Source: an uncultured Gammaproteobacteria bacterium
GTDB taxonomy: Bacteria > Pseudomonadota > Gammaproteobacteria > Steroidobacterales > Steroidobacteraceae
DNA length: 64,000 nt
Direction: 5' to 3'
NCBI GenBank assembly: GCA_963771665.1
Contig: CAVYUK010000004.1
Span: forward strand, 63,971 to 127,970
Positions 5,978 to 54,335 of this stretch are shown here, piece by piece. The position numbers were made by a program, and so were the translations under genes. Every line of letters starts with the position of its first letter. The first letter of the stretch is position 1. The notes below the pieces were generated by a model that did no database searches, was not told the origin of the DNA, and worked only from the letters and a program-made list of their open reading frames with translations.

Positions 5978-6163
5978 AACCTTAAGCTCCTGGCTGATGC
6001 AGCCTGATATTGGGAAGTCAGGGCAATAGTGGACCCTGCCGGGCAGCGACACTGCCGATGCCGCTCCGATGTTCGAATCAGACAGGGCTGACGCGCTGCC
6101 CCGGAACGCCGCTGTTAGACTCCGGCGCAATTGGCCTAGGGAACATCATCCAGGGGGATATCT

Positions 6164-6388
6164 ATGAGCGGAATGAAAGTGCTGGCGGCGGTGTTGATCG
6201 TCGGCGGGATACTCGGGCTGGTCTATCACCACTTCAGCTACACGCAGAATACCCACGAGGCGAAGATCGGCTCGGTGGAGCTGTCAGTTGCCAAAAAGGA
6301 GTCCGTGGACGTGCCGGAATGGGCCGCCGTGGGCGCCATTGTCGTGGGTGCGGCCCTGCTGCTGTTCGGCAGCAGCGCCAGGCGTTAG
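6164..6388 (+). CDS. small two-TM membrane protein
   Basis: 74 aa with hydrophobic helices at both ends (VLAAVLIVGGILGLVY; AAVGAIVVGAALLLFG). GGGGGA lies upstream of the ATG. Confidence 0.5.
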   Translation: MSGMKVLAAVLIVGGILGLVYHHFSYTQNTHEAKIGSVELSVAKKESVDVPEWAAVGAIVVGAALLLFGSSARR

Positions 6389-6459: not shown

Positions 6460-6582
6460 GTGGGCAAAGGCGATCGAAAAACGCGGCGTGGCAAGATCTA
6501 TCGGGGTTCATTCGGCAAGACCCGGCCGAAGGATCCGGCCGCCAAGAAGAAAGCGGCTGCCAAGACTGCCACGCGGAAATAG
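6460..6582 (+). CDS. 30S ribosomal protein THX (bTHX)
   Basis: Not in the ORF track because it is 40 aa. GTG start sits 7 nt after AAGGAG (6447-6452). Translation is (M)GKGDRKTRRGKIYRGSFGKTRPKDPAAKKKAAAKTATRK, which shows the GKGD+K/R-T-R-R-GK signature of THX. Confidence 0.8.
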   Translation: MGKGDRKTRRGKIYRGSFGKTRPKDPAAKKKAAAKTATRK

Positions 6583-6643
6583 CCCCCGGCGACTATCGCC
6601 GCACGTGCCCTGAAGCGACATCATCGCCAAGAGGGGTATGACC

Positions 6644-6949
6644 ATGAATAGAGTCATTACACGACGTGCCCTGGTGAAGGGCGGCCTGCTTGCAGGCGCG
6701 CTGGCCCCGGTTGCGGGCCTCTTTGTGAGTGGTACCGCTCGTGCCGACCTGCCGCCGCTGGATCCGAATGATCCGGCCGCCAGGGGGCGCGACTACGTTA
6801 CAAAATCGGCCAAGCCCGAGGCGCGCTGCGCCAATTGCGGACTCTATAAGGACACGGGCGGCGGGATGGGTTCCTGCACGCTCTTCACGGGAAAGAGCGT
6901 CGCTGCTGCCGGTTGGTGCAGCGGCTGGGTGAAGACGGGAACGCCCTGA
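6644..6949 (+). CDS. high-potential iron-sulfur protein (HiPIP), Tat-exported
   Basis: Twin-arginine leader (ITRRALVKGG). Cys pattern CANC...C...WCSGW. ATG 6638 or 6644, with the GAGGGG spacing favouring 6644. Confidence 0.9.
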   Translation: MNRVITRRALVKGGLLAGALAPVAGLFVSGTARADLPPLDPNDPAARGRDYVTKSAKPEARCANCGLYKDTGGGMGSCTLFTGKSVAAAGWCSGWVKTGTP

Positions 6950-6968
6950 GCCCTAGAGCACTAGAGCC

Positions 6969-8297
6969 CTAGAGAATGTAACGGCTGAGGTCCTCGTCCT
7001 TCGCCAGCGCGCCCAGATGGTCATCGACGTAAGCCGCATCCACGCGCAGCGCGGAATCGGCACGCTCGCTGGCATCGAACGAGATCGTCTCGAGTAACCG
7101 CTCCATCACCGTATGCAGGCGGCGCGCGCCGATGTTCTCGGTGCGCGAGTTGACCTGGTGCGCGATCTCGGCGATGCGCCGCACCCCATCGGTGGTGAAT
7201 TCGAGCGTTACGCGCTCGGTCGCGAGCAGGGCACGGTACTGCGCCGTCAGCGAGGCATCCGGCTCGGTCAGGATGCGCACGAAGTCCTCGACGGTCAGCG
7301 ATTCCAGTTCGACGCGGATCGGAAAACGGCCCTGCAGCTCCGGGATCAGGTCCGAGGGCTTGGACATGTGGAACGCGCCCGAAGCAATGAACAGTATGTG
7401 ATCGGTCTTGATCGAGCCGTACTTGGTGTTGACGCTGCTGCCTTCCACCAGCGGCAGCAGGTCGCGCTGCACGCCTTCGCGTGAGACATCGGCGCCGACG
7501 GTTTCCTGGCGGCGCGCGATCTTGTCGATCTCATCGATGAAGACGATGCCGTTCTGCTCGGCGTTGTTGAGCGCGCGCGCCTTGAGTTCTTCCTCGTTGA
7601 TGAGCTTGCCGGCCTCTTCCTCGATCATGAGCTTGAGCGCCTCGCTCACCTTGACGCGCCGCGTGCGGGTGCGATTGCCGCCGAGATTGGACAGCACGGA
7701 CTGCAGCTGCTGCTGCATCTCCTCCATGCCCGGGGGCGCCATGATGTCGACGCCGGCGCCCTGGGAACGCACTTCGATCTCGACCTCCCGCTCATCGATC
7801 TGACCGGCGACGAGCATCTCGCGCAGTTTGTTGCGGGTGTCGGCATCGCGCGGCTGAACGGGCTCATCGGTGGAGAAGCCCATGCGGTGCGGCCGCGGCA
7901 GCAGTGCATCCAGCACCCGCTCGACCGCCGCTGCGCGTGCGCCGTCGCGCACGCGCGCGAGTTCGACTTCACGCATCATCTTGACCGCCACGTCGGCCAG
8001 GTCCTTGATGATTGAATCGACCTCGCGCCCCACATAGCCGACTTCCGTGAATTTGGTGGCCTCCACTTTCACGAACGGTGCCTGTGCGAGGCGGGCGAGG
8101 CGGCGCGCAATCTCGGTCTTGCCGACACCGGTCGGGCCGATCATGAGGATGTTCTTGGGCGTGATCTCATGGCGCAGGGAATCGCCCACCTGCATGCGGC
8201 GCCAACGGTTGCGCAGCGCGATGGCTACCGCGCGCTTGGCGGCGCCCTGCCCGACGATGTGCTTGTCGAGCTCGGCAACGATGTCCTGCGGGGTCAC
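6969..8297 (-). CDS. hslU: ATP-dependent protease ATPase subunit HslU
   Basis: [17 protein letters not shown], Walker [17 protein letters not shown]-terminus LSRYIL. Overlaps the hslV stop by 4 nt. Confidence 0.98.
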
Positions 8298-8839
8298 GGA
8301 CGCAGTTCCTCGATCACGAGGTTGCGGTTGGTATAGATGCAGATATCGGCAGCGATGCCGAGCGAGCGCTCGACAATCGTGCGCGCATCCAGCTCGGTGT
8401 TCTCGGTGAGCGCGCGCGCGGCGGCCTGGGCGAACGGGCCGCCCGAACCGATGGCCACGGCCTCGAATTCCGGCTCGATGACATCGCCGTTGCCCGAGAT
8501 GACGAACAGGTTCTGCGGGTCGCCCACCAGCAGCAGGGCCTCGAGCCGGCGCAGGTAGCGGTCGGAGCGCCAGTCCTTGGCCAGTTCGATGGCCGCGCGC
8601 GTGAGGTTGCCGTATTTCTCGAGCTTGCCTTCGAAGCGCTCGAACAGCGTGAACGCATCGGCGGTGCCGCCGGCGAAGCCTGCCAGCACCTTGCCATTGG
8701 AAAGGCGCCGCACCTTGCGGGCATTGCCCTTCATGACCGTGTTGCCGAGAGTGACCTGGCCGTCACCGCCGAGCGCGATGGCGCCGCCGCGTCGCACGGC
8801 CAGGATAGTAGTGGAATGGGGATCGAATTTTTCGCTCAT
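8294..8839 (-). CDS. hslV: ATP-dependent protease subunit HslV
   Basis: [10 protein letters not shown]...[22 protein letters not shown] and GSGGPFA. Nine residues precede the Thr-Thr nucleophile. Confidence 0.97.
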
Positions 8840-11375: not shown

Positions 11376-11843
11376 TTAGCTGCCGCAGGCTGTGTCCATC
11401 GCCTGATGCAGATTCACCCGCTGTTGCTCGGCTTCCTCGTCGGTGAGGTATTGGCGTTCGCCGTCGGTGCCGGATTTATAGATCCGGCGCGCCGCGATGG
11501 CCGCCTCGTAATCGGATTTGGCCTTGGTGCACTGGTCGGCACGAGTCTGTTCGACATCCTGCTGCACGGCCTTTTCCGCGGCCTCTTTCGCCAGCGGGTC
11601 CTGTGGCGGGGCCTTGGCGGCCGTCGGGGAAGCGGTTGCCGCGCTGCTGGATTTGGCGGCAGCAGCGGTGCTGTTGAAGGCGATGCCGCCGCCGCCGCGC
11701 TGTACGTGCACGAGTTCTGCGCCGGGCGTCGGTGTGTCGCTGTAATGCACCTGGCCTTGCGCGTCGACCGAACGGTAGACGTCGGCCTGCGCCGCAGTGA
11801 TGGCCAGCGACATAAGCAGGGTAGCAGCGGCGACTCGGCGCAT
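11376..11843 (-). CDS. DUF4124-like periplasmic protein
   Basis: Signal peptide followed by DVYRSVDAQGQVHYSDTP, then a low-complexity Ala-rich linker. Confidence 0.7.
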   Translation of the reverse strand: MRRVAAATLLMSLAITAAQADVYRSVDAQGQVHYSDTPTPGAELVHVQRGGGGIAFNSTAAAAKSSSAATASPTAAKAPPQDPLAKEAAEKAVQQDVEQTRADQCTKAKSDYEAAIAARRIYKSGTDGERQYLTDEEAEQQRVNLHQAMDTACGS

Positions 11844-11918: not shown

Positions 11919-13330
<1,412 letters not shown>

Positions 13331-13334
<4 letters not shown>

Positions 13335-13627
13335 GTGGCCGAGGGGCCGGTTTCCCCGGTGCGGATACGGATGGCCTGTTCCAGCTCGCCGACCAGGATG
13401 CGGCCGTCGCCGCTGCGGCCGGTTCGGGACACATTGGCGATCGCCTCGAGCACCGGCTCGACGATCGAGTCATCCACGGCGATTTCGACCTTGGCCCGCG
13501 GGCCAAACTGTGCCTCGTAGACTTCGGTGACCGTGACACCCTGGACGCCCAGTTGTGCAATCGCCTGCCGCAGTTCGTCCAGCTTGAAAGGCCGCACGAC
13601 CGCGGTGATCATTTTCATGATTTGCAT
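13331..13627 (-). CDS. PII (GlnK/GlnB) family protein lacking the T-loop
   Basis: The first 33 aa from MKMITAVVRPFKLDELR..GVTVTEV align with GlnB. The B-loop TGRSGDGRI and C-terminal IRIRTGE are kept. About 17 residues corresponding to the T-loop are absent. Start is ambiguous (ATG at 13627, 13618 or 13612). Confidence 0.8.
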
Positions 13628-13718
13628 TTCGCGATGATCGGACCCTGAACATGGAAGCCCGTGGACTTGCTGGCGCGCGTAATCTTAGGTCTAGCCGCAA
13701 ATCGCGTTGAGGCAACGG

Positions 13719-13734
13719 TGCAGAAAGCATGCCA
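13719..13734 (-). promoter_or_regulatory. sigma54 (-24/-12) promoter for glnK-like/amtB
   Basis: The minus strand reads TGGCATGCTTTCTGCA, with GG and GC in canonical spacing to TGGCAC-N5-TTGCA. It lies about 90 nt upstream of the PII start. Confidence 0.6.
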
Positions 13735-13853: not shown

Positions 13854-14114
13854 ATGGAAAACCCACGTTTCGACCCACGGCTCGATGATATCGCACGCCG
13901 ACTTTTTGAGGGGCTGCCCGAGTCGGCCCGGACGCTACGGCGCGATATAGAGAGCAACTTCCGCGCGGTGCTGCAGGCATCGCTGGGGAAGCTCGACCTG
14001 ACCACGCGGCAGGAGTTCGAAGTGCAGACTCGCGTGCTCGAGCGTACGCGAGCGGCGCTGGCGCAACTCGAGGAGCGCATCGCCGTGCTCGAGAAGCGCC
14101 TGGCGGAGAAGTGA
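13854..14114 (+). CDS. ubiK: ubiquinone biosynthesis accessory factor UbiK (YqiC/BMFP family)
   Basis: ORF 13785..14114. Start taken at MENPRFDPRLDDIARRLFEG. Coiled-coil C-terminus TRQEFEVQTRVLERTRAALAQLEERIAVLE. Confidence 0.75.
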   Translation: MENPRFDPRLDDIARRLFEGLPESARTLRRDIESNFRAVLQASLGKLDLTTRQEFEVQTRVLERTRAALAQLEERIAVLEKRLAEK

Positions 14115-15667
14115 GCTTTGCCCGGGCCCTGAGCCGCGCGCAACTGGGGCTCGAGGCACCGCTGGTCCAGGCTGAGGCCCACATCGGCCCCGGGCTGCCC
14201 AATTTTACGATCGTCGGCCTGCCTGCCCCCGTGGTGCGCGAAAGCCGGGAGCGCGTGCGGGCGGCGCTGCTGAGCTCCGGCTACACGTTTCCGCCGGGCC
14301 GCATCACCGTCAACCTGGCGCCGGCGGAGCTGTCCAAGCAGGGCGGGCGCTTCGATTTGCCCGTGGCGCTGGCGCTGCTGATTGCCAGCGGGCAAGTGCC
14401 GGTGCCGGCACTTCCGTTCGAGTGCTACGGCGAGCTGGGACTGGCCGGTGAGCTCAAACCCGTCGCCGGTCTGTTCCTGGCGGCGCTGCATGCGCGGGCA
14501 GCGCAACACGCGCTGATCGTGCCCGCCGGCAATGGCGAGGAGGTGGCACTGAGCGCCCACCCGATTGCCTACGTCGCTGCCAACTTACGCGCGGCGGCGC
14601 AGCTGCTGGTGGGGCCGACAGCGGCGGGTATGCTGCCTGCGCCGGCCGCCAGAGACCGCGCTAATGTCACAGGCCTGCTGGCGCCGCCTTCACTCGACGA
14701 GGTGGTCGGGCACTGGCACGCCAAGCGCGCGCTGATCATCGCTGCCGCGGGTGGACACAGCGTATTGCTGATCGGGCCGCCCGGCAGCGGCAAGAGCATG
14801 CTGGCTGCGCGACTGCCCGAATTGCTGCCGCCGCTGTCTTCGAGCGAGGCGCTGGAAGTCGCGAGCATCGCGTCGACGGCGGGGCTGCGACTCGAGGCCG
14901 GCCAGTGGGACCGGCGTCCATTTCGCTCTCCGCATCATTCGGCGTCGGCGCAGGCCATCGTTGGCGGTGGTCCCCAGATTCGCCCCGGCGAAGTGACGCT
15001 GGCACACCACGGGGTGCTCTTTCTCGATGAGCTGCCGGAGTTCGACCGGCGCGTACTCGAGTCATTGCGCGAGCCGCTCGAGACGGGCGCCATCACGATC
15101 GCGCGCGCGGCGGCGCGACTGGAGCTGCCGGCGCGATTTCAGCTCATCGCCGCGATGAACCCCTGTCCCTGCGGCTATTTTGACGACAGCGCGCGCGAAT
15201 GCCGCTGCGGCGCCACGCGCGTCGCGCGCTATCGCCAGCGCATTTCCGGGCCGCTGCTCGATCGCATCGATCTGCGCATCGAGGTGCCGAGGATCGAGGC
15301 CGGGGAATTTGTCGATGGGGCGCTACAGGCATACGCGGAGGCGCCTGCGATCGCGGATGCAAAGGTGCCGATCGGGGAAACCGTGGCGCAGGTTGCGCGT
15401 GCGCGCGAGTGGCGATTGTATCGCTCGGGTTGCCTGAGCGCGCGGCTGGATTCAGCGGCGCTGCAAAGCTGCTGCGCCCTGCCGCGATCGGCCCAGGCGA
15501 TGCTCAAGAAATGCGCGCAGCAACTGGCTCTATCGGGGCGAGGGATTCACCGCTTGCTGACGATCAGCCGCACGATTGCGGATCTTGCGGGCAGCGAGAG
15601 CATCGAGGTGCCGCATCTGGAGGAGGCCGTGCAATTGCGACGGCCGCTCGGAGAAGCGCCGTCCTGA
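14111..15667 (+). CDS. yifB: YifB/ComM family Mg-chelatase-like AAA+ ATPase
   Basis: GTG start overlaps the ubiK stop (GTGA). Walker A GPPGSGKSMLA, plus GVLFLDELPEF and AAMNPCPCG. Confidence 0.9.
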   Translation: MSFARALSRAQLGLEAPLVQAEAHIGPGLPNFTIVGLPAPVVRESRERVRAALLSSGYTFPPGRITVNLAPAELSKQGGRFDLPVALALLIASGQVPVPALPFECYGELGLAGELKPVAGLFLAALHARAAQHALIVPAGNGEEVALSAHPIAYVAANLRAAAQLLVGPTAAGMLPAPAARDRANVTGLLAPPSLDEVVGHWHAKRALIIAAAGGHSVLLIGPPGSGKSMLAARLPELLPPLSSSEALEVASIASTAGLRLEAGQWDRRPFRSPHHSASAQAIVGGGPQIRPGEVTLAHHGVLFLDELPEFDRRVLESLREPLETGAITIARAAARLELPARFQLIAAMNPCPCGYFDDSARECRCGATRVARYRQRISGPLLDRIDLRIEVPRIEAGEFVDGALQAYAEAPAIADAKVPIGETVAQVARAREWRLYRSGCLSARLDSAALQSCCALPRSAQAMLKKCAQQLALSGRGIHRLLTISRTIADLAGSESIEVPHLEEAVQLRRPLGEAPS

Positions 15668-15769
15668 TGCTTGATTGGGCATTGGCGGCGGCGTATACAG
15701 GGGGCAAATAGGGGCAGCCAAAGCGCGTTGCCCAAAGATGTGGGAGGCCGGGACGCCGTCCCCGTATCC

Positions 15770-18058
15770 ATGAGGGAGTCATCGACAGAGGGCCGTGAAG
15801 CTGTGCCCAGCGCACGCTCGCTGGTTCCGTGCCTCTGGGCTTTGCTTGCCACAACGGCGCTCGCGTCCGGGGCCGCTCCAGAGAAGTGGCGACAAAGCCT
15901 CACCGAGGGATCGCAGGACCGGCAACTCGGTGCTCTGGACGATTCCATCGCCGCACTCGAGCTTGCGGTGCGGGATGCACCCGATACGCCCAGCCGGGTG
16001 CTATCCCAGACGCAACTCGGTGTCAGCCTATTGCAGACAGGCCGACTCGCGCAGGCCGATGCTGCGCTCCAGTCCGCCTATCGGGACGCGGACGAGGACA
16101 GTCGCTACACGGTCGCGCTGGCGATCGGCAATCTGGCGGTTCGATCCCACGACTATCCGCGCGCAAGCCGTTATTACCAGCAGGCGGCCGAATCGGCGCC
16201 GGCGGATGCCACCGGCAACGACACCCGCGCGATCGCAGAGCTTGCGCTTACCGGCCTGCTGCAGCCCATTGAGCGGCTTGCGAAGCTGGATGCGCTGCTG
16301 CCGCGGATCGAGGCCATGGACAGGCCGTCCTATCGCGCCAGAGCTTTGTTTGGTTTGGGCCGGCAGGCCAGCGAGGCGCTGGTGCTGGCGCGGCTCACGC
16401 ATTCGCCGGAGTCCGATCTGGCGCTGCGCCTGAGCTATCGCGGACTGGCCGCTTCGAAGCAATGGGCCGATGAAAATGAGGATCTGCCGCTGGCGGTCGA
16501 TGCGGCCGATGCACTCGCGCAGCTGTACGAGTCGCAAGGGCGTTATGCGGAGGCTGCGCAGATCAACCTCAATGCCATCCGCGCGGCCACGGGCCTGAAG
16601 CACGGCCAAGCGGAGCTGCCGCTGGCGCGATTGGATTGGCGTGCGGCGCGCCTGGCACGGCAGCGCGGTGACGCAGCAGCGGCACTCGCAGGCTATCTGC
16701 ACGCGGCCGATTATCTGCGGGCCATCGCGCCCGACCTGCCCATCGAGGATGCGCAGGGCAAGTCGACTTACCAGTCATTGCAGCGACCGATTTTCCTGGG
16801 TCTCGCCGATGAGTTGCTGCAGGACGTGGATACGCTGCGCCCCGAGCTCAAGCAACAACGGTTGCTGGCAGCGTTGAATCTGATCGAGCAGGCGCACCAG
16901 GCCGAGCTGCAGGATTATCTGGGCGATCGCTGCTCGGTGGATTCGGTCGGGAAACCCACTGGGGCCGCAGCGGGCGAAACTGTGGCACCCGGCATCGCGA
17001 TCATTTATCCGCTGGTGCTGAAGGAGCGGCTGGAAGTGGTGGTGCGGACCAGCCAGGGTCTGCGGCATCACACAGCGCCGGTGTCGGCGGCGACGCTGGC
17101 AAAAGAGATTCAGAATTTTCGCTCGGCTCTTCTCGACCCAGGTTCGTCCGATTACGTGTCGGCGTCCAGCCGCCTGGACGAATGGCTGATAGCGCCGTTT
17201 GCCTCCATGCTGGAACAGGCCCATGTGCAGCAACTCATCATCGTGCCGGACGGATATCTGCGACTGATTCCGTTCGCGGCCCTGCACGACGGCAATGAGT
17301 TTCTCGCGCAGCGCTACTGGGTTTCCAGCGTGACCGGGCTGACGATGACGGAACAGCGGACCGAGCGGCGTGCACGGCCGGTCTCGCTGTTCGCGGGTCT
17401 TTCGACGCCCGGGCCGGTCGTGGACCGACTCGCAGCCATGGGATTTGCCGGCCGCGCGGCCCCTGAGGCCGGCGCGGTATCCGCGACACGCGCATTGAAT
17501 CTGCGCAGCCAGCTGGCGCTGCCTGGAGTTCAGAGCGAGATCCAGGATCTGGTGCCGCTGTCGCGCAGCGTCTGGATGCTGAACGATCAGTTCACCGTCA
17601 GCCACTTTGCGCAGGAGGTGCAGAGCGGCCGGTATAGCGTCGTGCACATCGCCTCGCACAGCTTCTTCGGCAGCAATGCCGGCGACTCCTTTCTGCTGGC
17701 TTACGACAATGTGATCCGTATCGATCAATTGCAGCAGCTGCTCGCCAGCAATGAGGTGCGGCAGGCCGGCATCGATCTGCTGACTCTTTCGGCCTGCGAC
17801 ACTGCGACCGGCGATGATCGGGCACCGCTCGGATTTGCCGGCGCCGCCATCAAGGCGCATGCGCGCAGCGTGCTGGGTTCCCTCTGGGCCGTCAGCGACA
17901 CCGCCACACAACAATTCATGGAGGTCTTCTATAAAGGCCTTCCCCAGCACGGCAAGGCCGAGGCTTTCACCGAGGCACAGCGGGTGTTGATGGGTTCGAC
18001 AACGTTTTCGCACCCTTACTACTGGGCGCCGTTCGTTCTGACCGGTGACTGGAATTGA
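15770..18058 (+). CDS. secreted TPR + CHAT (caspase-like) domain protein
   Basis: ORF 15671..18058. A signal-like peptide starts at ATG 15770 (SLVPCLWALLATTALASG). Helical repeats in the N-terminal half. C-terminal CHAT blocks VVHIASHSFFG (His codon 17657-17659) and LLTLSACDTATG (Cys codon 17795-17797). Confidence 0.85.
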   Translation: MRESSTEGREAVPSARSLVPCLWALLATTALASGAAPEKWRQSLTEGSQDRQLGALDDSIAALELAVRDAPDTPSRVLSQTQLGVSLLQTGRLAQADAALQSAYRDADEDSRYTVALAIGNLAVRSHDYPRASRYYQQAAESAPADATGNDTRAIAELALTGLLQPIERLAKLDALLPRIEAMDRPSYRARALFGLGRQASEALVLARLTHSPESDLALRLSYRGLAASKQWADENEDLPLAVDAADALAQLYESQGRYAEAAQINLNAIRAATGLKHGQAELPLARLDWRAARLARQRGDAAAALAGYLHAADYLRAIAPDLPIEDAQGKSTYQSLQRPIFLGLADELLQDVDTLRPELKQQRLLAALNLIEQAHQAELQDYLGDRCSVDSVGKPTGAAAGETVAPGIAIIYPLVLKERLEVVVRTSQGLRHHTAPVSAATLAKEIQNFRSALLDPGSSDYVSASSRLDEWLIAPFASMLEQAHVQQLIIVPDGYLRLIPFAALHDGNEFLAQRYWVSSVTGLTMTEQRTERRARPVSLFAGLSTPGPVVDRLAAMGFAGRAAPEAGAVSATRALNLRSQLALPGVQSEIQDLVPLSRSVWMLNDQFTVSHFAQEVQSGRYSVVHIASHSFFGSNAGDSFLLAYDNVIRIDQLQQLLASNEVRQAGIDLLTLSACDTATGDDRAPLGFAGAAIKAHARSVLGSLWAVSDTATQQFMEVFYKGLPQHGKAEAFTEAQRVLMGSTTFSHPYYWAPFVLTGDWN

Positions 18059-18061
18059 TGC

Positions 18062-21000
18062 GTGACGGTGGCTGAGAATAACAAGAGGGCCTGGGCGGCC
18101 GGCGGCGCGGGGCTCTGCCTCACGTTGGTATCGGCCGCTGCAAATTCCGCGGGCCCCGCGGGTATCAAGCTCGATGGAACACTTGGCGGTACGGCCGCCG
18201 CATTGACTGGACCGAACTACAACATCACGCAGAGTCTCGGCCGGCTCTCGGGCGGGAATCTCTTCTTCAGTTTCCAGTACTTCAATGTCGCAACCGGCGA
18301 GACCGCTCTGTTTACGACTTCGAGCGCCGGTATCGCCAATGTCATCAGTCGGGTCACGGGCGGCTACGCCTCGAGCATCGATGGCACCATCAGGCTGCAG
18401 GCGGCATCGGGGAGGCCGGACTTCTTTCTGATCAATCCCAGCGGAGTGACCTTCACCAGCAACGCGGTGGTCGACGTACCGGCGGCCTTCTATGTCAGCA
18501 CGGCCGATTACCTGAAGTTTCCCGACGGCAATTTCTATGTCGATCCCGGCAAGGTGAGCACCCTGTCGGCGGCGGCGCCGGAAGCCTTCGGCTTCCTCGG
18601 CGGCGCGCGTGCGCCGGTCGCTGTGCTGGGCGGCCGCCTCACCGGCGGCAGTAACGGAGTCGGGGATTTCGACATCACAGCCGGCGATGTGACCATCGAT
18701 GGCGGCGGTGCACAGAATGGGATCTACGAATCGAGCGGCGAGATACGTATCGCGGCGGTGGGTAATGCAGCCGCCGAGGTACCGCTGTCGGGGCCATATT
18801 CCGCGAGCGATGGCAGCGTCACCATCCGCAATGGCGGGCTGCTGTGGTCCGAAGGGGTCGGTGCCACGCCCGGCGCAGGCGTATCGATCAGCGCCGGCAG
18901 CCTGCTTATCGATGGCGCGGGAGCACCCAACTTCACCGGGGTAGTTGCCGGGGATCTTGGCGCGCCGGGACCGATCGACGTGACGATTGCCAACGACGCG
19001 CAGATCGTGAACGGCGGGCTGATTTACTCGGCCAATTCCTTTGCCGGGGCGGCGGCCAAGGTCTCGCTGAGCGCTGGCACACTGACCATCGATGGCGCCA
19101 ATGCTGCGGGTACCACAGGCATCGAATCAGACGCATTGGGAAATGGCGCCGGCGCCGATGTGCAGGTCAGCGTGAAGGGTCAAGCCACGATCATGGGCAC
19201 TGGCGGCATCTTTACGACCACCGCAGGCCAGGGCAATGCGGGCGATATGGTGCTGTCAGCCGGGGCGTTATCGATCAATGCCACGGAGCCTACTCAGAAC
19301 CCGGGACTCCAGTCCTTTACCACCGGTACCGGCAATGCCGGCGCCATAACGGTCGATGTTTCGGGCAACGTCTCGTTGACCGGGAGCGCGGGAATCCTTT
19401 CCTATACGGAGGCATCGGGCAATGCGGGAGCGGTCAGTGTACAGGCGCTCGGCACGCTGTCGATGGGCGGAGGTTCCCAGATTTTTTCCAATAATTACTC
19501 CGGCTCCGGCAATGGCGGCGATGTCCTCGTGACTGGCTCGGCATTGACCATCGACGCGCAGGCCAGCAGTGGCACGACCTGCATCTGCACCACCACCGAG
19601 ACAGCCGGCAGCGGCGGGTCCGTCACTGTGCGCGTCGGTTCGCTGTCGATTGAGGGGGCGAACAGCAATCTTGGATTCACGGGCATCGAGACCGTGGCCG
19701 ACGGTGCGGGCAGCGGCGGAGCGCTCCGGCTCGAGGTAGTCGGCCAGGCCACGATCTCCAATGGCGGGTTTATCTACAGCGGGACCAGTGGTCAGGGCAA
19801 CGCGGGCAACATCGCGGTGTCCGCCGGTAATCTGCTGTTGCAGGATGTCGGCAACGGCAATATCAACACTGGCATCGCCAGCAATACCTTCGGCGCAGGC
19901 GCGTCCGGGTCGGTGCAGATCAACAGCGGTGCGCTGATGCTGAGTGCACCGGCGGGCACCAATCCGCTCGCCACTCCGGTGGGTATTTCCAGCAGCCCCG
20001 AGTCAGGCTCGAGCGGCAATGGCGGCAATGTCACAGTCGATATCGCCGGCCCGGTATCGCTCAACGGTCCCACGGTGATCTCCACGTCCACCTATTCCAC
20101 GGGGGCTGCCGGGCAGGTCTCAATCGATGCACAGGGGGCAGTGTCCCTGCTCGGTGGTGGCCTGATCAGCTCCGAGTCCTTCGCCGCCGGCGCAGGCAAT
20201 GCCGGCAGCGTCACGCTGAATGCCGCGGCGCTGGATATAGAAGGGCGCGGCTCTGCCTTCGAAACCGGCGTGGCTGCCGATACCAGCGGCACGGGCAGCG
20301 CCGGTGACGTCACTGTTCACGTCGGCACGCTGTCGATCGATGGTGGTAGCGGTACAGGCGAGGCCGACATCGAGGCGTTTACCAATGGCAGCGGGGCGGG
20401 CGGCCAGATTCAGATCATGGTGGCGCGCAACGCCACCATCGCCGACGGCGGCCTGATCTATACCAACGCCTACGCGCAGGGGAATGCGGGCAGCATCACT
20501 CTGAGTGCCGGTAACCTCACGATAGACGCGCATCCCAATGGCAGCAACTACGCCACTGGCATTTCAGCCGATACCTATGGCCCCGGCAATGCCGGATCGA
20601 TTCAGATCAGCTCCGGATCGCTGACTGTCAGCAGCTATTCGGGCAGCCTTCTGCCGATTGTCATTTCCAGCGACGCCCTCGCGGGATCCACCGGCAATGC
20701 CGGCGCCGTCAATATCTTTGTCGATGGCGATATGCTTTTCACCGGCAACTCCTCGGTGAGCTCCAATTCGTATTCATCCGGCAATGCGGGCAGGGTAAAC
20801 GTCAACGCGGCCGGCAGCATTTCGTTGCTCGACGGCGCGTACATCTCATCGATCGCCAATGCGGCCACCGGCAATGCCGGCGACATCAGTGTCGCGGCAT
20901 CGGCACTCAATATTGAAGGAACCAGCACGGGCCTCACGGGCATCAGCACCGAATCCTACGGCACCGGCAACTCCGGATCGATTCAGGTGCACGTGGGCTC

Positions 21001-22123
21001 GCTGTTGATTGAGGGCGGTACCGCAGCGGCCATCGACAGCGAGGTGTTTCCGGAAGGGACTGGCGGTGTGGGCGGCGCGGCCGGTTCCATCATCGTCGAC
21101 GTTGCCGGCAGCGCCATTCTGCAGAACGGTTCGAAGATATCGACGACTTCCTACGGTTCCGGACCTGCCGGTGACGTGAGCATCAGCGCCGGGACGCTGC
21201 TGCTGGGCGGCGGCAGCGTTCGATCCATCATCTCCAGCGGTGCGCGTGCGGGCTCCGGTGGTCAACCCGGAAACGTTTCGATCGATGCCGGCACGCTCGA
21301 GGTGCTGTCCAATGGATCCATCAACATTGCCGACAACGCGACGATCGCCAACCCGGGCAGCGTCAAACCGACGCAGATCAGCATTACGGCCGGACAGATT
21401 GATCTGAACGATGGTCTGATCACGGCCGCCTCCACCGGCAATGTGGCGGCCAGCGCCATCGACATCAGTTACTCCTCGGCACTGCGCATGGATCCGAGCA
21501 CCATCTCGACTTCATCGCAGGATGGCAACGGCGGTCCCATTACCATCACCGGCCAGGGTCCGCTGCTGATGGGACATTCGAGCATCACGACCTCCGTACT
21601 CGGCGCCACCAACGGCAACGGTGGCGACATCAGCATCGATGTCCCCGTGATCGCGCTGGACACCGGCTTCATACAGGCCAATACGTTTGCGCCGGTCGCC
21701 TCGGGTGGCACCATCCGGATCGACGCGCAGGCCCTGGTGCCCAGCGAGCAATCCTTCATCCTGGGCGGCAACGCGCTGTCCTTCGACTCGGCCGCGCAGG
21801 GGCTCAACGTCGTGCAGGCGGCCGCTCCGGATGGCTTGAGCGGGACACTCAGCGTGACGGTGCCCACATTGGATCTGGGCAATGCACTGCTGGGGCTGAC
21901 GGGCCGGCCCTCGACGCCCGCCGCGCTGGGGCGAAGCGCCTGCGGGTTCGACCGCGGCAGTGCTCTGGTGGTGACAGGTCGTGGCGGCGTCGCTGCTACG
22001 GCATACGATCCAATGTGGATTGACCCGATCAGCCCAGTCCGCCCGGCCCGCAGCTCTGACCGCAAGGTGTCGGCCATGCCCGGCAGCGGCATCGAGGCGG
22101 CAAGGTCTGCCCCCTGCCGATGA
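18062..22123 (+). CDS. two-partner-secretion exoprotein (TpsA) with filamentous-haemagglutinin N-terminal TPS domain and beta-helix repeats
   Basis: TPS blocks GNLFFSFQYFNV, ANVISRVTGG and DFFLINPSGVTF, then about 20 degenerate G-x-G-N-A-G-x-[IV]-x-[IV] repeats. GTG start 3 nt after the CHAT gene. Confidence 0.9.
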   Translation: MTVAENNKRAWAAGGAGLCLTLVSAAANSAGPAGIKLDGTLGGTAAALTGPNYNITQSLGRLSGGNLFFSFQYFNVATGETALFTTSSAGIANVISRVTGGYASSIDGTIRLQAASGRPDFFLINPSGVTFTSNAVVDVPAAFYVSTADYLKFPDGNFYVDPGKVSTLSAAAPEAFGFLGGARAPVAVLGGRLTGGSNGVGDFDITAGDVTIDGGGAQNGIYESSGEIRIAAVGNAAAEVPLSGPYSASDGSVTIRNGGLLWSEGVGATPGAGVSISAGSLLIDGAGAPNFTGVVAGDLGAPGPIDVTIANDAQIVNGGLIYSANSFAGAAAKVSLSAGTLTIDGANAAGTTGIESDALGNGAGADVQVSVKGQATIMGTGGIFTTTAGQGNAGDMVLSAGALSINATEPTQNPGLQSFTTGTGNAGAITVDVSGNVSLTGSAGILSYTEASGNAGAVSVQALGTLSMGGGSQIFSNNYSGSGNGGDVLVTGSALTIDAQASSGTTCICTTTETAGSGGSVTVRVGSLSIEGANSNLGFTGIETVADGAGSGGALRLEVVGQATISNGGFIYSGTSGQGNAGNIAVSAGNLLLQDVGNGNINTGIASNTFGAGASGSVQINSGALMLSAPAGTNPLATPVGISSSPESGSSGNGGNVTVDIAGPVSLNGPTVISTSTYSTGAAGQVSIDAQGAVSLLGGGLISSESFAAGAGNAGSVTLNAAALDIEGRGSAFETGVAADTSGTGSAGDVTVHVGTLSIDGGSGTGEADIEAFTNGSGAGGQIQIMVARNATIADGGLIYTNAYAQGNAGSITLSAGNLTIDAHPNGSNYATGISADTYGPGNAGSIQISSGSLTVSSYSGSLLPIVISSDALAGSTGNAGAVNIFVDGDMLFTGNSSVSSNSYSSGNAGRVNVNAAGSISLLDGAYISSIANAATGNAGDISVAASALNIEGTSTGLTGISTESYGTGNSGSIQVHVGSLLIEGGTAAAIDSEVFPEGTGGVGGAAGSIIVDVAGSAILQNGSKISTTSYGSGPAGDVSISAGTLLLGGGSVRSIISSGARAGSGGQPGNVSIDAGTLEVLSNGSINIADNATIANPGSVKPTQISITAGQIDLNDGLITAASTGNVAASAIDISYSSALRMDPSTISTSSQDGNGGPITITGQGPLLMGHSSITTSVLGATNGNGGDISIDVPVIALDTGFIQANTFAPVASGGTIRIDAQALVPSEQSFILGGNALSFDSAAQGLNVVQAAAPDGLSGTLSVTVPTLDLGNALLGLTGRPSTPAALGRSACGFDRGSALVVTGRGGVAATAYDPMWIDPISPVRPARSSDRKVSAMPGSGIEAARSAPCR

Positions 22124-52957: not shown

Positions 52958-54247
52958 GTCCTACCGGGCACATAGGTAACACTTCTTCCGAGCACATGGG
53001 TAACACTTTTCGGCATTTGCGGGAGACGCAACATGCCTTGGAAGGAGTTATCCAAGATGGACGAGAGGATGCGTTTCGTGGCTCGGTTGATGGAGGGAGA
53101 GAAGATGGCGGTGTTGTGCCGTGAGTTCGATATCTCCCGCAAAACCGGCTACAAGATCTTCAACCGCTACAAGCACGCGGGGATCGAAGGGCTCACCGAC
53201 CGCAGCCGCCGCCCGTACCGACACGCCAACCGGCTGCCCTTTCAGATTGAGCAGCTGATCTTGCAGATCAAGGAGAAGCGCTCGAGCTGGGGAGCGCAGA
53301 AGATCCGGGACAAGATCAAGCTGCTCCACACCAAGATCCACCTTCCCGCCATCAGCACCGTGCATGCGGTCCTGTACCGCAACGGCCTGGTGGGCGATGA
53401 GGGTCGTCCGCGCTACAAGGCTCAGGGCACGACCCTATCCCAGGCTAACCGACCCAACGATCTGTGGTGCGCCGATTACAAGGGCGAGTTCATGCTCGCC
53501 GATAAACGGTATTGCTACCCGCTGACCATCACCGACTTCGCCAGTCGCTACCTGCTCTGCTGTGACGCCCTGGGCAGCACCCAGGAGATGTTCGCTTTTA
53601 CCGTGTTTGAGCGGGCTTTTAAGGACTTCGGACTGCCTCTGGCTATCCGTACCGACAACGGCATCCCCTTCGCCAGCCGCAGTGCCTTCTTCGGCCTCTC
53701 CAAGCTCTCAGTGTGGTGGTTGCGCCTCGGGATCGGCATCGAGCGCATCAAGCCCGGCAATCCGCAACAGAACGGCCGCCACGAGCGCATGCATCTGACC
53801 CTCAAGAAGGAAGCTACCAAGCCGGCGGCCAACAATCTGTTGCAGCAGCAAGCCAAGTTCGATCACTTCATCGAGTACTACAACCGAGAACGCCCGCACC
53901 AGGCCCTGGAGGGTCGCTGCCCCGCTCAGCTGTATCGACCGTCCCGGCGACCCTACACCGGCTTGAGTGATCTGGAATATCCCTTCCACGATCGCACCAT
54001 CACGGTGACCACCTGTGGGCGCATCTGTTTCGGACGGCGTAAGATCAATCTAAGCCAGGTCTTCGCCGGACAGAATGTCGGCATCAAAGAAGTGGCTGAA
54101 AAGATCTGGCTGGTCAGCTTTATGCACTACGACCTGGGGTTCTTTGATCACGAGGTAGGTCGCGTCGAGTGTGCCCCTAACCCGTTCGGCGCCAAACTGT
54201 TACCCATGTCTCCGGAATGAAATGGGTACCATGTGCCCGGTTAGGAC
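52958..54247 (+). mobile_element. IS481-family insertion sequence, complete with terminal inverted repeats
   Basis: IRL is GTCCTACCGGGCACATAGGTAAC (52958->). The reverse complement of the right end is GTCCTAACCGGGCACATGGTACC (54247<-). A subterminal second copy of CACATGGGTAACA lies at each end. No flanking direct repeat seen. Confidence 0.85.
53033..54220 (+). CDS. IS481-family DDE transposase
   Basis: N-terminal HTH ([18 protein letters not shown]). rve core WCADYKG (D), IRTDNGIPF (D) and [10 protein letters not shown] (E). Confidence 0.9.
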
Positions 54248-54258
54248 CTCAAAAGAAA

Positions 54259-54335
54259 TGGCGCGCCCGACTGGATTCGAACCAGTGACCCCTGCCTTCG
54301 GAGGGCAGTACTCTATCCAGCTGAGCTACGGGCGC
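54259..54335 (-). tRNA. tRNA-Arg (anticodon CCG)
   Basis: The minus strand reads GCGCCCGTAGCTCAGCTGGATAGAGTACTGCCCTCCGAAGGCAGGGGTCACTGGTTCGAATCCAGTCGGGCGCGCCA. It has a 7-bp acceptor stem, anticodon stem CTGCC/GGCAG, loop CTCCGAA, T-arm GGTTCGAATCC and an encoded CCA. Confidence 0.95.

Follow-up and report, generated by a model that had tools for sequence, protein, structure and literature searches.

A naturally fixed GlnK variant without a T-loop in uncultured Steroidobacteraceae

The T-loop is regarded as the defining input and output element of PII proteins: it serves most of the known targets, carries the covalent modification and undergoes the change of shape that is driven by 2-oxoglutarate (2-OG). 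GlnK contacts the ammonium channel AmtB almost exclusively via its T-loops, with Arg47 blocking the pore (PMC4274968). The phosphates of the nucleotide are bound by the backbone of Gly87 and Gly89 and by Arg101 and Arg103 (PMC7919409), Gln39 is a Mg ligand in the Mg-ATP/2-OG complex, and residue 86 tunes the cooperativity of 2-OG (PMC3198391). Interactions that are independent of the T-loop (with DraG, NadE2 and UmpH, and in the NAGK encounter complex) have so far been known from engineered deletions only. GlnZ Δ42–54 still binds NadE2 and relieves its inhibition, in a complex that is insensitive to 2-OG (PMC7196632). It also binds UmpH, and this complex is 2-OG-insensitive too (PMC11617674); with DraG it has been crystallized (PDB 5OVO). 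S. elongatus PII Δ47–53 still binds Mg-ATP and docks to NAGK via its B-loop, independently of effectors (bioRxiv 10.64898/2026.08.10.743959). The PstA/DarA c-di-AMP receptors and CutA have the trimeric, ferredoxin-like PII-type fold and a short β2–β3 connection; PstA is PII-like with distinct signal-transduction properties (PMC4316997). Our search of the full-text literature for natural T-loop-less, truncated or shortened PII or GlnK proteins, and for Steroidobacter PII genes, gave only engineered variants.

The short GlnK described here, encoded in the window (the whole 64-kb stretch of DNA that was analysed; Table 1), has the same Pfam family, fold, B-loop and C-terminal nucleotide residues as canonical GlnK (E. 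coli GlnK, PDB 1GNK/2NUU, and the full-length relatives L017 and L020). It also has the same amtB partner, comM–ubiK neighbourhood and σ54-type promoter. It resembles the PstA/DarA and CutA proteins in its short β2–β3 connection, but these are separate ancient families with other ligands and no amtB linkage, whereas short GlnK is a recent derivative inside bona fide GlnK. With the engineered GlnZ Δ42–54 and S. elongatus PII Δ47–53 it shares a PII core minus the T-loop. It is a new, naturally fixed variant of GlnK and not a new family.

The ORF of about 95 aa from MKM that the initial annotation had reported was confirmed. Its product is 98 aa long when counted from MQIMKM (MQIMKMITAVVRPFKLDELRQAIAQLGVQGVTVTEVYEAQFGPRAKVEIAVDDSIVEPVLEAIANVSRTGRSGDGRILVGELEQAIRIRTGETGPSAT); the MKM start lies at 13618 and is residue 1 in canonical PII numbering. 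The product matches Pfam PF00543 (P-II) with 66.6 bits (cutoff 25) and E 2.8e-18 over profile positions 1–102, which is the whole profile. This is the sole Pfam family matched at E ≤ 0.01, and the same scan gave no match to the profiles of PstA/DarA or CutA themselves. Against the NCBIfam GlnK equivalog (NF007946/PRK10665) short GlnK scores 88.2 bits, below the cutoff of 181, and the match falls into two stretches. A phmmer search of the PDB is split in the same way, with query residues 4–37 corresponding to PII 1–34 and query residues 37–97 to PII 51–111; the engineered 99-aa A. brasilense GlnZ Δ42–54 (5OVO) aligns in a single stretch (E 6e-26).

MAFFT alignment of short GlnK with 47 relatives leaves a single clean gap of 17 columns at canonical positions 34–50. 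The residues lost are Lys34, Gly35, Phe36, Gly37, Arg38, Gln39, Lys40, Gly41, His42, x43, Glu44, x45, Tyr46, Arg47, Gly48, Ala49 and Glu50, with 13520 and 13519 flanking the deletion junction. The extended T-loop, which runs from β2 to β3 (about residues 37–55), is absent and is replaced by a three-residue turn in the predicted model. Arg47, the T-loop apex that plugs the AmtB pore, is present in 116/116 full-length relatives and deleted here. The profile alignment, the phmmer search and MAFFT thus uphold the initial claim of a T-loop deletion; an intact loop was seen in none of them. The deletion has the proposed size of 17 residues and includes Arg47 as proposed, but its best placement is 34–50 rather than about 37–53. 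Nor does it contain Tyr51, which had been counted among the lost residues: the window has a Tyr aligned opposite Tyr51, at a position that is variable across the clade.

Table 1. Features of the short glnK locus and their positions in the window.
Feature	Position	Strand	Evidence
DUF4124 protein 3' of amtB, synteny anchor	11376..11843	-	synteny; PF13511 on orthologues
amtB ammonium channel	11919..13313	-	PF00909 E 2e-119; TIGR00836 446.7 bits
short glnK	13331..13627	-	PF00543, split PDB match, MAFFT gap, AF2 model, dN/dS 0.06
replacement hairpin YEAQFGPRAK codons, β2 joined directly to β3	13490..13519	-	clade alignment and model
putative σ54-type promoter TGGCATGCTTTCTGCA (-24 GG / -12 GC)	13719..13734	-	consensus match, 101–116 nt upstream of MKM start
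ubiK/BMFP-family gene, divergent, in conserved glnK neighbourhood	13854..14114	+	PF04380 E 6.4e-24
comM/yifB-type Mg-chelatase-like ATPase, synteny anchor	14111..15667	+	tblastn synteny; ChlI, Mg_chelatase and Mg_chelatase_C on orthologues

An AlphaFold2 monomer model computed from a 48-sequence alignment (pLDDT 79) has the normal PII topology with a β-α-β-β-α-β core (strands 2–8, 28–35, 39–48 and 73–78; helices 10–22 and 50–64). Strands 28–35 and 39–48 form a tight β2–β3 hairpin around a turn at 36–38. The C-terminus, which in PII normally packs in the trimer, has pLDDT values below 50, as expected since the model is a monomer. The top 50 Foldseek matches are all PII proteins (TMq 0.77–0.84) and include 5OVO, the DraG–GlnZ Δ42–54 complex. 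Both the model and Foldseek thus find the double β-α-β, ferredoxin-like fold.

No full-length orthologue was found in close relatives. The 120 closest database clusters (90%-identity clusters, all at ≥ 85% identity) gave 118 usable sequences with a recognisable start and end, and all 118 carry the same deletion and are exactly 95 aa long counted from MKM. They stem from independent JGI, ENA, NCBI and Logan assemblies, the largest contig being 2.09 Mb. Database names for the short proteins are merely ‘P-II family nitrogen regulator’ or ‘nitrogen regulatory protein P-II 2’. In a scan of one genome per species the short form was found in 16 species (L001–L016), all represented by MAGs labelled Steroidobacteraceae, Steroidobacterales or Gammaproteobacteria; all remaining matches, at ≤ 63% identity, are full length. 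Not counting the gap, the closest full-length relative is 63% identical to short GlnK. The carriers are widespread uncultured Steroidobacteraceae of soil and peat.

Across the 16 genomes identity to the window is 86–100% for PII but only 50–81% for the flanking ComM, so the short clade spans several genera. Nei–Gojobori analysis of 105 pairs gave a median dN/dS of 0.058 at a median dS of 1.1, and between the glnK genes of the window and L001 dN is 0 at a dS of 0.37. In every copy that is not cut short the frame is uninterrupted (15 of the 16 species and the window; L016 is cut at a contig end). In neighbour-joining trees built without the T-loop columns, the short sequences form a clade of their own in 274 of 300 bootstraps, and this clade falls among the Steroidobacteraceae GlnKs. 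Low dN/dS together with a monophyletic, nested clade argues for one in-frame loss of 17 codons in a common ancestor and for long purifying selection thereafter.

We compared the residues of the 118 short sequences with those of 116 full-length relatives. Since the short set is the less diverse sample, a site is informative only if it varies more in this set. G27, T29, G84, G87, D88, G89, R101, R103, T104 and E106 are invariant in the short sequences, and T83 of the B-loop (T-G-x-x-G-D-G-[KR]) is found in 117/118. By sequence match, short GlnK thus has the nucleotide-binding signature of B-loop and C-terminal R101-x-R103; the initial annotation had reported both elements as kept (TGRSGDGR and IRIRTGE), and in the alignments their retention is invariant throughout the clade. 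The new hairpin is fixed at E52, G56, R58, K60 and E62 in the 118 sequences, with P57 in 116/118, giving the clade motif x-E-x-x-[FYHLV]-G-P-R-x-K. L56G and K58R are clade-specific changes, and position 52 is fixed as Glu.

Positions 51, 54, 55, 80, 86 and 92 are more variable in the short clade. Position 86 varies most (S, A, I and T are commonest), and Phe92 is replaced by L, F, I or M. Position 51 is Tyr in 115/116 full-length relatives; in the 118 short sequences it is most often Y (100), followed by H (11), F (2) and L (2), with V, Q or W in isolated members. In the predicted model this residue lies at the end of strand β2, beside the three-residue turn. A residue that varies and is so placed does not qualify as a conserved, exposed site of modification. 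Given the published roles of the residues (PMC7919409; PMC3198391), the overall pattern fits a protein that still binds adenine nucleotides but no longer senses 2-OG. Constraint is also relaxed at Phe92 and residue 86, both close to the effector cleft, so that nucleotide affinity may have changed too.

The locus reads comM, ubiK/BMFP, PII, amtB, DUF4124 and dapF, with comM and ubiK on the strand opposite to PII and amtB. This order is the same in short-clade loci and in full-length Steroidobacteraceae relatives (including L017, L020 and L021). A σ54-type element, TGGCAY-N5-CTGCA, is found at −93 to −117 in the window and in 15/15 short-clade loci that include upstream sequence; the full-length relatives L017, L018 and L021 have it as well. 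Still further upstream, L011 and L015 contain NtrC-like matches (TGCACC-N5-xGTGCA). Because gene order and the σ54-type promoter are common to full-length relatives, the short gene is, by position, the glnK orthologue. These consensus matches indicate that the regulatory layout of a nitrogen-controlled glnK–amtB operon has been preserved here.

Between the σ54 −12 element and the start codon lies a leader of ∼ 100 nt (window 13619–13723, minus strand, with equivalents in L001–L015 and L082), which contains the conserved blocks AAGAATACGCGCACCG and GGTTCGATCATTGCGAAATGCA. Two in-frame ATGs at the start of the gene (M-x-x-M-K-M) are invariant, and neither is preceded by a clear Shine–Dalgarno sequence. 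A search of the leader for a regulatory RNA gave no Rfam match at E ≤ 1; its alignment showed no covariation and a consensus energy of −0.46 kcal/mol.

Translational coupling of glnK to amtB through an ATGA overlap, which had been proposed for this locus, stands in part. The longest amtB ORF reaches 13334 and does overlap the PII stop codon as ATGA (13331–13334), and the two genes are a tight operon pair. However, the overlap is confined to the window and L001; the other loci have a spacer of 20–45 nt bearing a GGGAG Shine–Dalgarno sequence, and in close relatives gene callers put the amtB start 13–21 nt past the PII stop. A later start is likelier in the window too: the ATG at 13311–13313, with AGGAG (13322–13326) 8 nt ahead. 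AmtB itself is complete. Aligned to E. coli AmtB (4NH2/2NUU, E 5e-101), it conserves the motifs around F107, W148, D160, H168, F215, S219 and H318, and the same alignment revealed no extra domain, C-terminal or other.

The loop used for plugging, 2-OG sensing and modification is absent, and short GlnK must therefore work some other way; it may have a different output or, as the initial annotation put it, act as a decoy. Since the T-loop is deleted and GlnK–AmtB contacts run via the T-loops (PMC4274968), the canonical plug mechanism is unavailable, and we infer that short GlnK would be unable to block AmtB through Arg47 or to be uridylylated canonically. Retained 2-OG binding, which had been suggested, is unlikely because Gln39 and the loop-base backbone that holds Mg-ATP and 2-OG are deleted (PMC3198391); residue 86 is also hypervariable, and engineered proteins without the T-loop do not respond to 2-OG (PMC7196632; PMC11617674).

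We propose that short GlnK is a PII core that binds adenine nucleotides, is blind to 2-OG, cannot be modified, does not plug AmtB and acts via its body or B-loop. We give this reading a probability of about 0.5. The direct precedent comes from the engineered T-loop deletions, which fold and bind DraG, NadE2, UmpH or NAGK via the body or the B-loop. The PII core and the phosphate-binding residues of the B-loop and C-loop are kept, and short GlnK would for this reason most likely form a trimer that binds ATP or ADP. Compared with canonical GlnK, the short form lacks residues 34–50, and with them it would have lost Arg47 as the plug of the AmtB channel, the exposed loop on which Tyr51 is offered to GlnD, and Arg38 and Gln39, the loop-base ligands for Mg-ATP and 2-OG sensing. 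Short GlnK would still be co-transcribed with amtB from the predicted σ54 (NtrC-type) promoter. Nitrogen status might then be carried by the abundance of the protein, driven by NtrC and σ54, rather than by the conformation or modification of a T-loop. Partners would be bound through the lateral face or the B-loop, possibly in an ATP/ADP-dependent manner, and no T-loop would plug AmtB in these organisms.

The natural deletion goes further than its engineered counterparts. It spans 17 residues as against 13 or 7, and it removes the loop base as well, whereas the engineered constructs keep the base (G35–G41), including Arg38 and Gln39. It has also been fixed and refined by selection (L56G, K58R and Glu52), unlike the laboratory constructs.

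A role beyond AmtB is supported by two species in which the short PII gene has outlived amtB. In L010 (2300–3300) amtB is cleanly missing, and a spacer of 120 nt separates the PII gene from the DUF4124 gene; in L006 (5990–7200) amtB is down to its last 85 or so, C-terminal, codons. PII is intact at both loci and remains constrained (pairwise dN/dS 0.02–0.11). Loss of amtB is not in excess in the short clade (2/12 loci versus 5/58 full-length loci, p = 0.59). Five full-length loci (L051, L060, L069, L071 and L074) have a canonical, comM-linked PII of 112 aa (about 6001–6333) without amtB, and two tandem DUF4124-like genes follow PII where amtB is absent. These five loci suggest that, in this part of the Gammaproteobacteria, the comM-linked PII serves as a general-purpose regulator. 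A different arrangement is seen at L021 (6001–8303, from a Steroidobacteraceae MAG), where amtB (6511–7815) has a PII gene on both sides (6001–6336 and 7965–8303).

What such a protein would mean for the cell depends on which other PII proteins are present. Searches of the 64-kb window and the 16 short-clade loci with tblastn found no second PII, and among the clusters listed in our homology searches no canonical PII was found sharing a contig with a short-clade gene. Three canonical PIIs from Steroidobacteraceae that we examined turned out to be orthologues from other MAGs. The locus of Pseudomonas, in which we take GlnK to be the sole PII, is similar (comM, ubiK-like, glnK, amtB). With this precedent and no second PII in the window or at the loci, it is plausible, if still doubtful, that the T-loop-less protein is the sole PII in these genomes. 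If so, a free-living clade would have given up the AmtB plug, the control of NtrB and GlnE, uridylylation by GlnD and 2-OG sensing, and the PII core would nonetheless be under strong selection. This would imply an essential, T-loop-independent function of the PII body, for whose identification the clade would be a natural system. Conversely, a canonical PII or GlnD elsewhere in the genome would change the physiological reading.

The linkage to amtB is kept in 10 of the 12 informative short-clade loci, which argues for a continuing AmtB-related role and thus runs counter to the explanation we favour. Short GlnK could be a dedicated AmtB regulator with a new docking mode, in which the flat face of the trimer sits on the cytoplasmic face of AmtB without deep insertion, and three short conserved hairpins (E52, G56-P57-R58, K60) gate the channel or act as a stand-by cap. 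Besides the shared operon and its σ54-type promoter, the invariance of E52, G56, R58 and K60, with P57 nearly so, would fit such a docking surface, and SbtB without its T-loop still forms a weak complex with the transporter SbtA (bioRxiv 10.1101/2023.08.10.552651). Yet the known GlnK–AmtB contacts are almost exclusively those of the T-loops (PMC4274968), and AmtB has neither an added domain nor a changed C-terminus to supply a new interface. The conserved hairpin need not be one either, because F55, P57 and K58 are inherited from the base of the canonical T-loop. With PII intact and constrained in the two species that have lost amtB at this locus, we consider the docking model unlikely.

GlnB–GlnK heterotrimers occur in E. 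coli, and short GlnK could be imagined as a tuning or ‘poison’ subunit that is induced by nitrogen limitation and joins a canonical PII paralogue, a GlnB from another locus, in heterotrimers; with fewer T-loops per trimer, canonical PII signalling would be damped or reshaped. In favour of this idea, the core that forms the trimer is fully conserved and the σ54-type promoter implies expression specific to nitrogen limitation. Such a subunit would need a partner, and the window and the 16 short-clade loci have no second PII gene, while the canonical forms examined are orthologues in other MAGs rather than paralogues. This explanation is improbable. Virtually no weight can be given to a decaying, non-functional glnK remnant or a sequencing or assembly artefact: such things do happen, as the truncated singletons P0214 and P0221 show, but conservation and dN/dS rule them out here, with the same deletion in all 118 usable sequences across independent assemblies and platforms, an intact frame at dN/dS 0.06 and near-saturated dS, and a monophyletic clade whose genomes differ as widely as their ComM.

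A loop that was lost long ago, in a protein under purifying selection as strong as that on canonical PII, means that the PII body has a function worth keeping alone. Short GlnK offers a defined system for body-mediated PII targets. It permits tests of how AmtB is managed without a plug, and of signalling by PII abundance as opposed to PII conformation. The carriers may depart from the textbook in their ammonium physiology.

A gradual decay of the T-loop ahead of its deletion is only partly supported. Arg38 is changed to Ala and Gln39 to Glu in one sub-lineage, but these variants sit inside a sister group in which Arg47 and Tyr51 are (nearly) invariant, and the deletion therefore looks abrupt. 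The full-length sister-group GlnKs concerned (L017:1976–2311, P0269, P0272, P0277, P0300, P0311, P0313 and P0331) have the T-loop base G-Y-G-A-E-H-G-H, with Arg38 replaced by Ala or Thr and Gln39 by Glu, and keep Arg47 and Tyr51. Going by these replacements, they may be natural variants with impaired 2-OG or Mg-ATP sensing.

P0214 and P0221 were the only further short PIIs in the best 150 of 6,843 representatives (50% identity). P0214 (99 aa), which has a degenerate B-loop, was confirmed to be a singleton; its contig is 964 bp long. P0221 (93 aa), which looks like a singleton or chimera, cleanly lacks about residues 39–57. In P0136, likewise singleton- or chimera-like, the N-terminal 60 or so residues of the short PII are fused to unrelated sequence. 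P0198 (112 aa), which stands closest to the short clade in the tree, has a T-loop that is normal in length but scrambled; it is a single sequence, and the scrambled loop may be a double frameshift.

Two further observations concern the window outside the operon. Adjoining comM, an unusual pair of genes (15671–22123, plus strand) encodes a 795-aa protein with TPR and CHAT domains and, 4 nt on, a 1353-aa protein whose N-terminus carries a TPS (two-partner secretion) domain. The segment 30000–54400 has a GC content of 0.56–0.61, compared with 0.63–0.69 in its flanks, and ends at a tRNA-Arg(CCG) (54259–54335) that adjoins an IS481-type transposase gene (53033–54220, with rve and LZ_Tnp_IS481 domains). 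The segment probably represents a genomic island that integrated at this tRNA gene.
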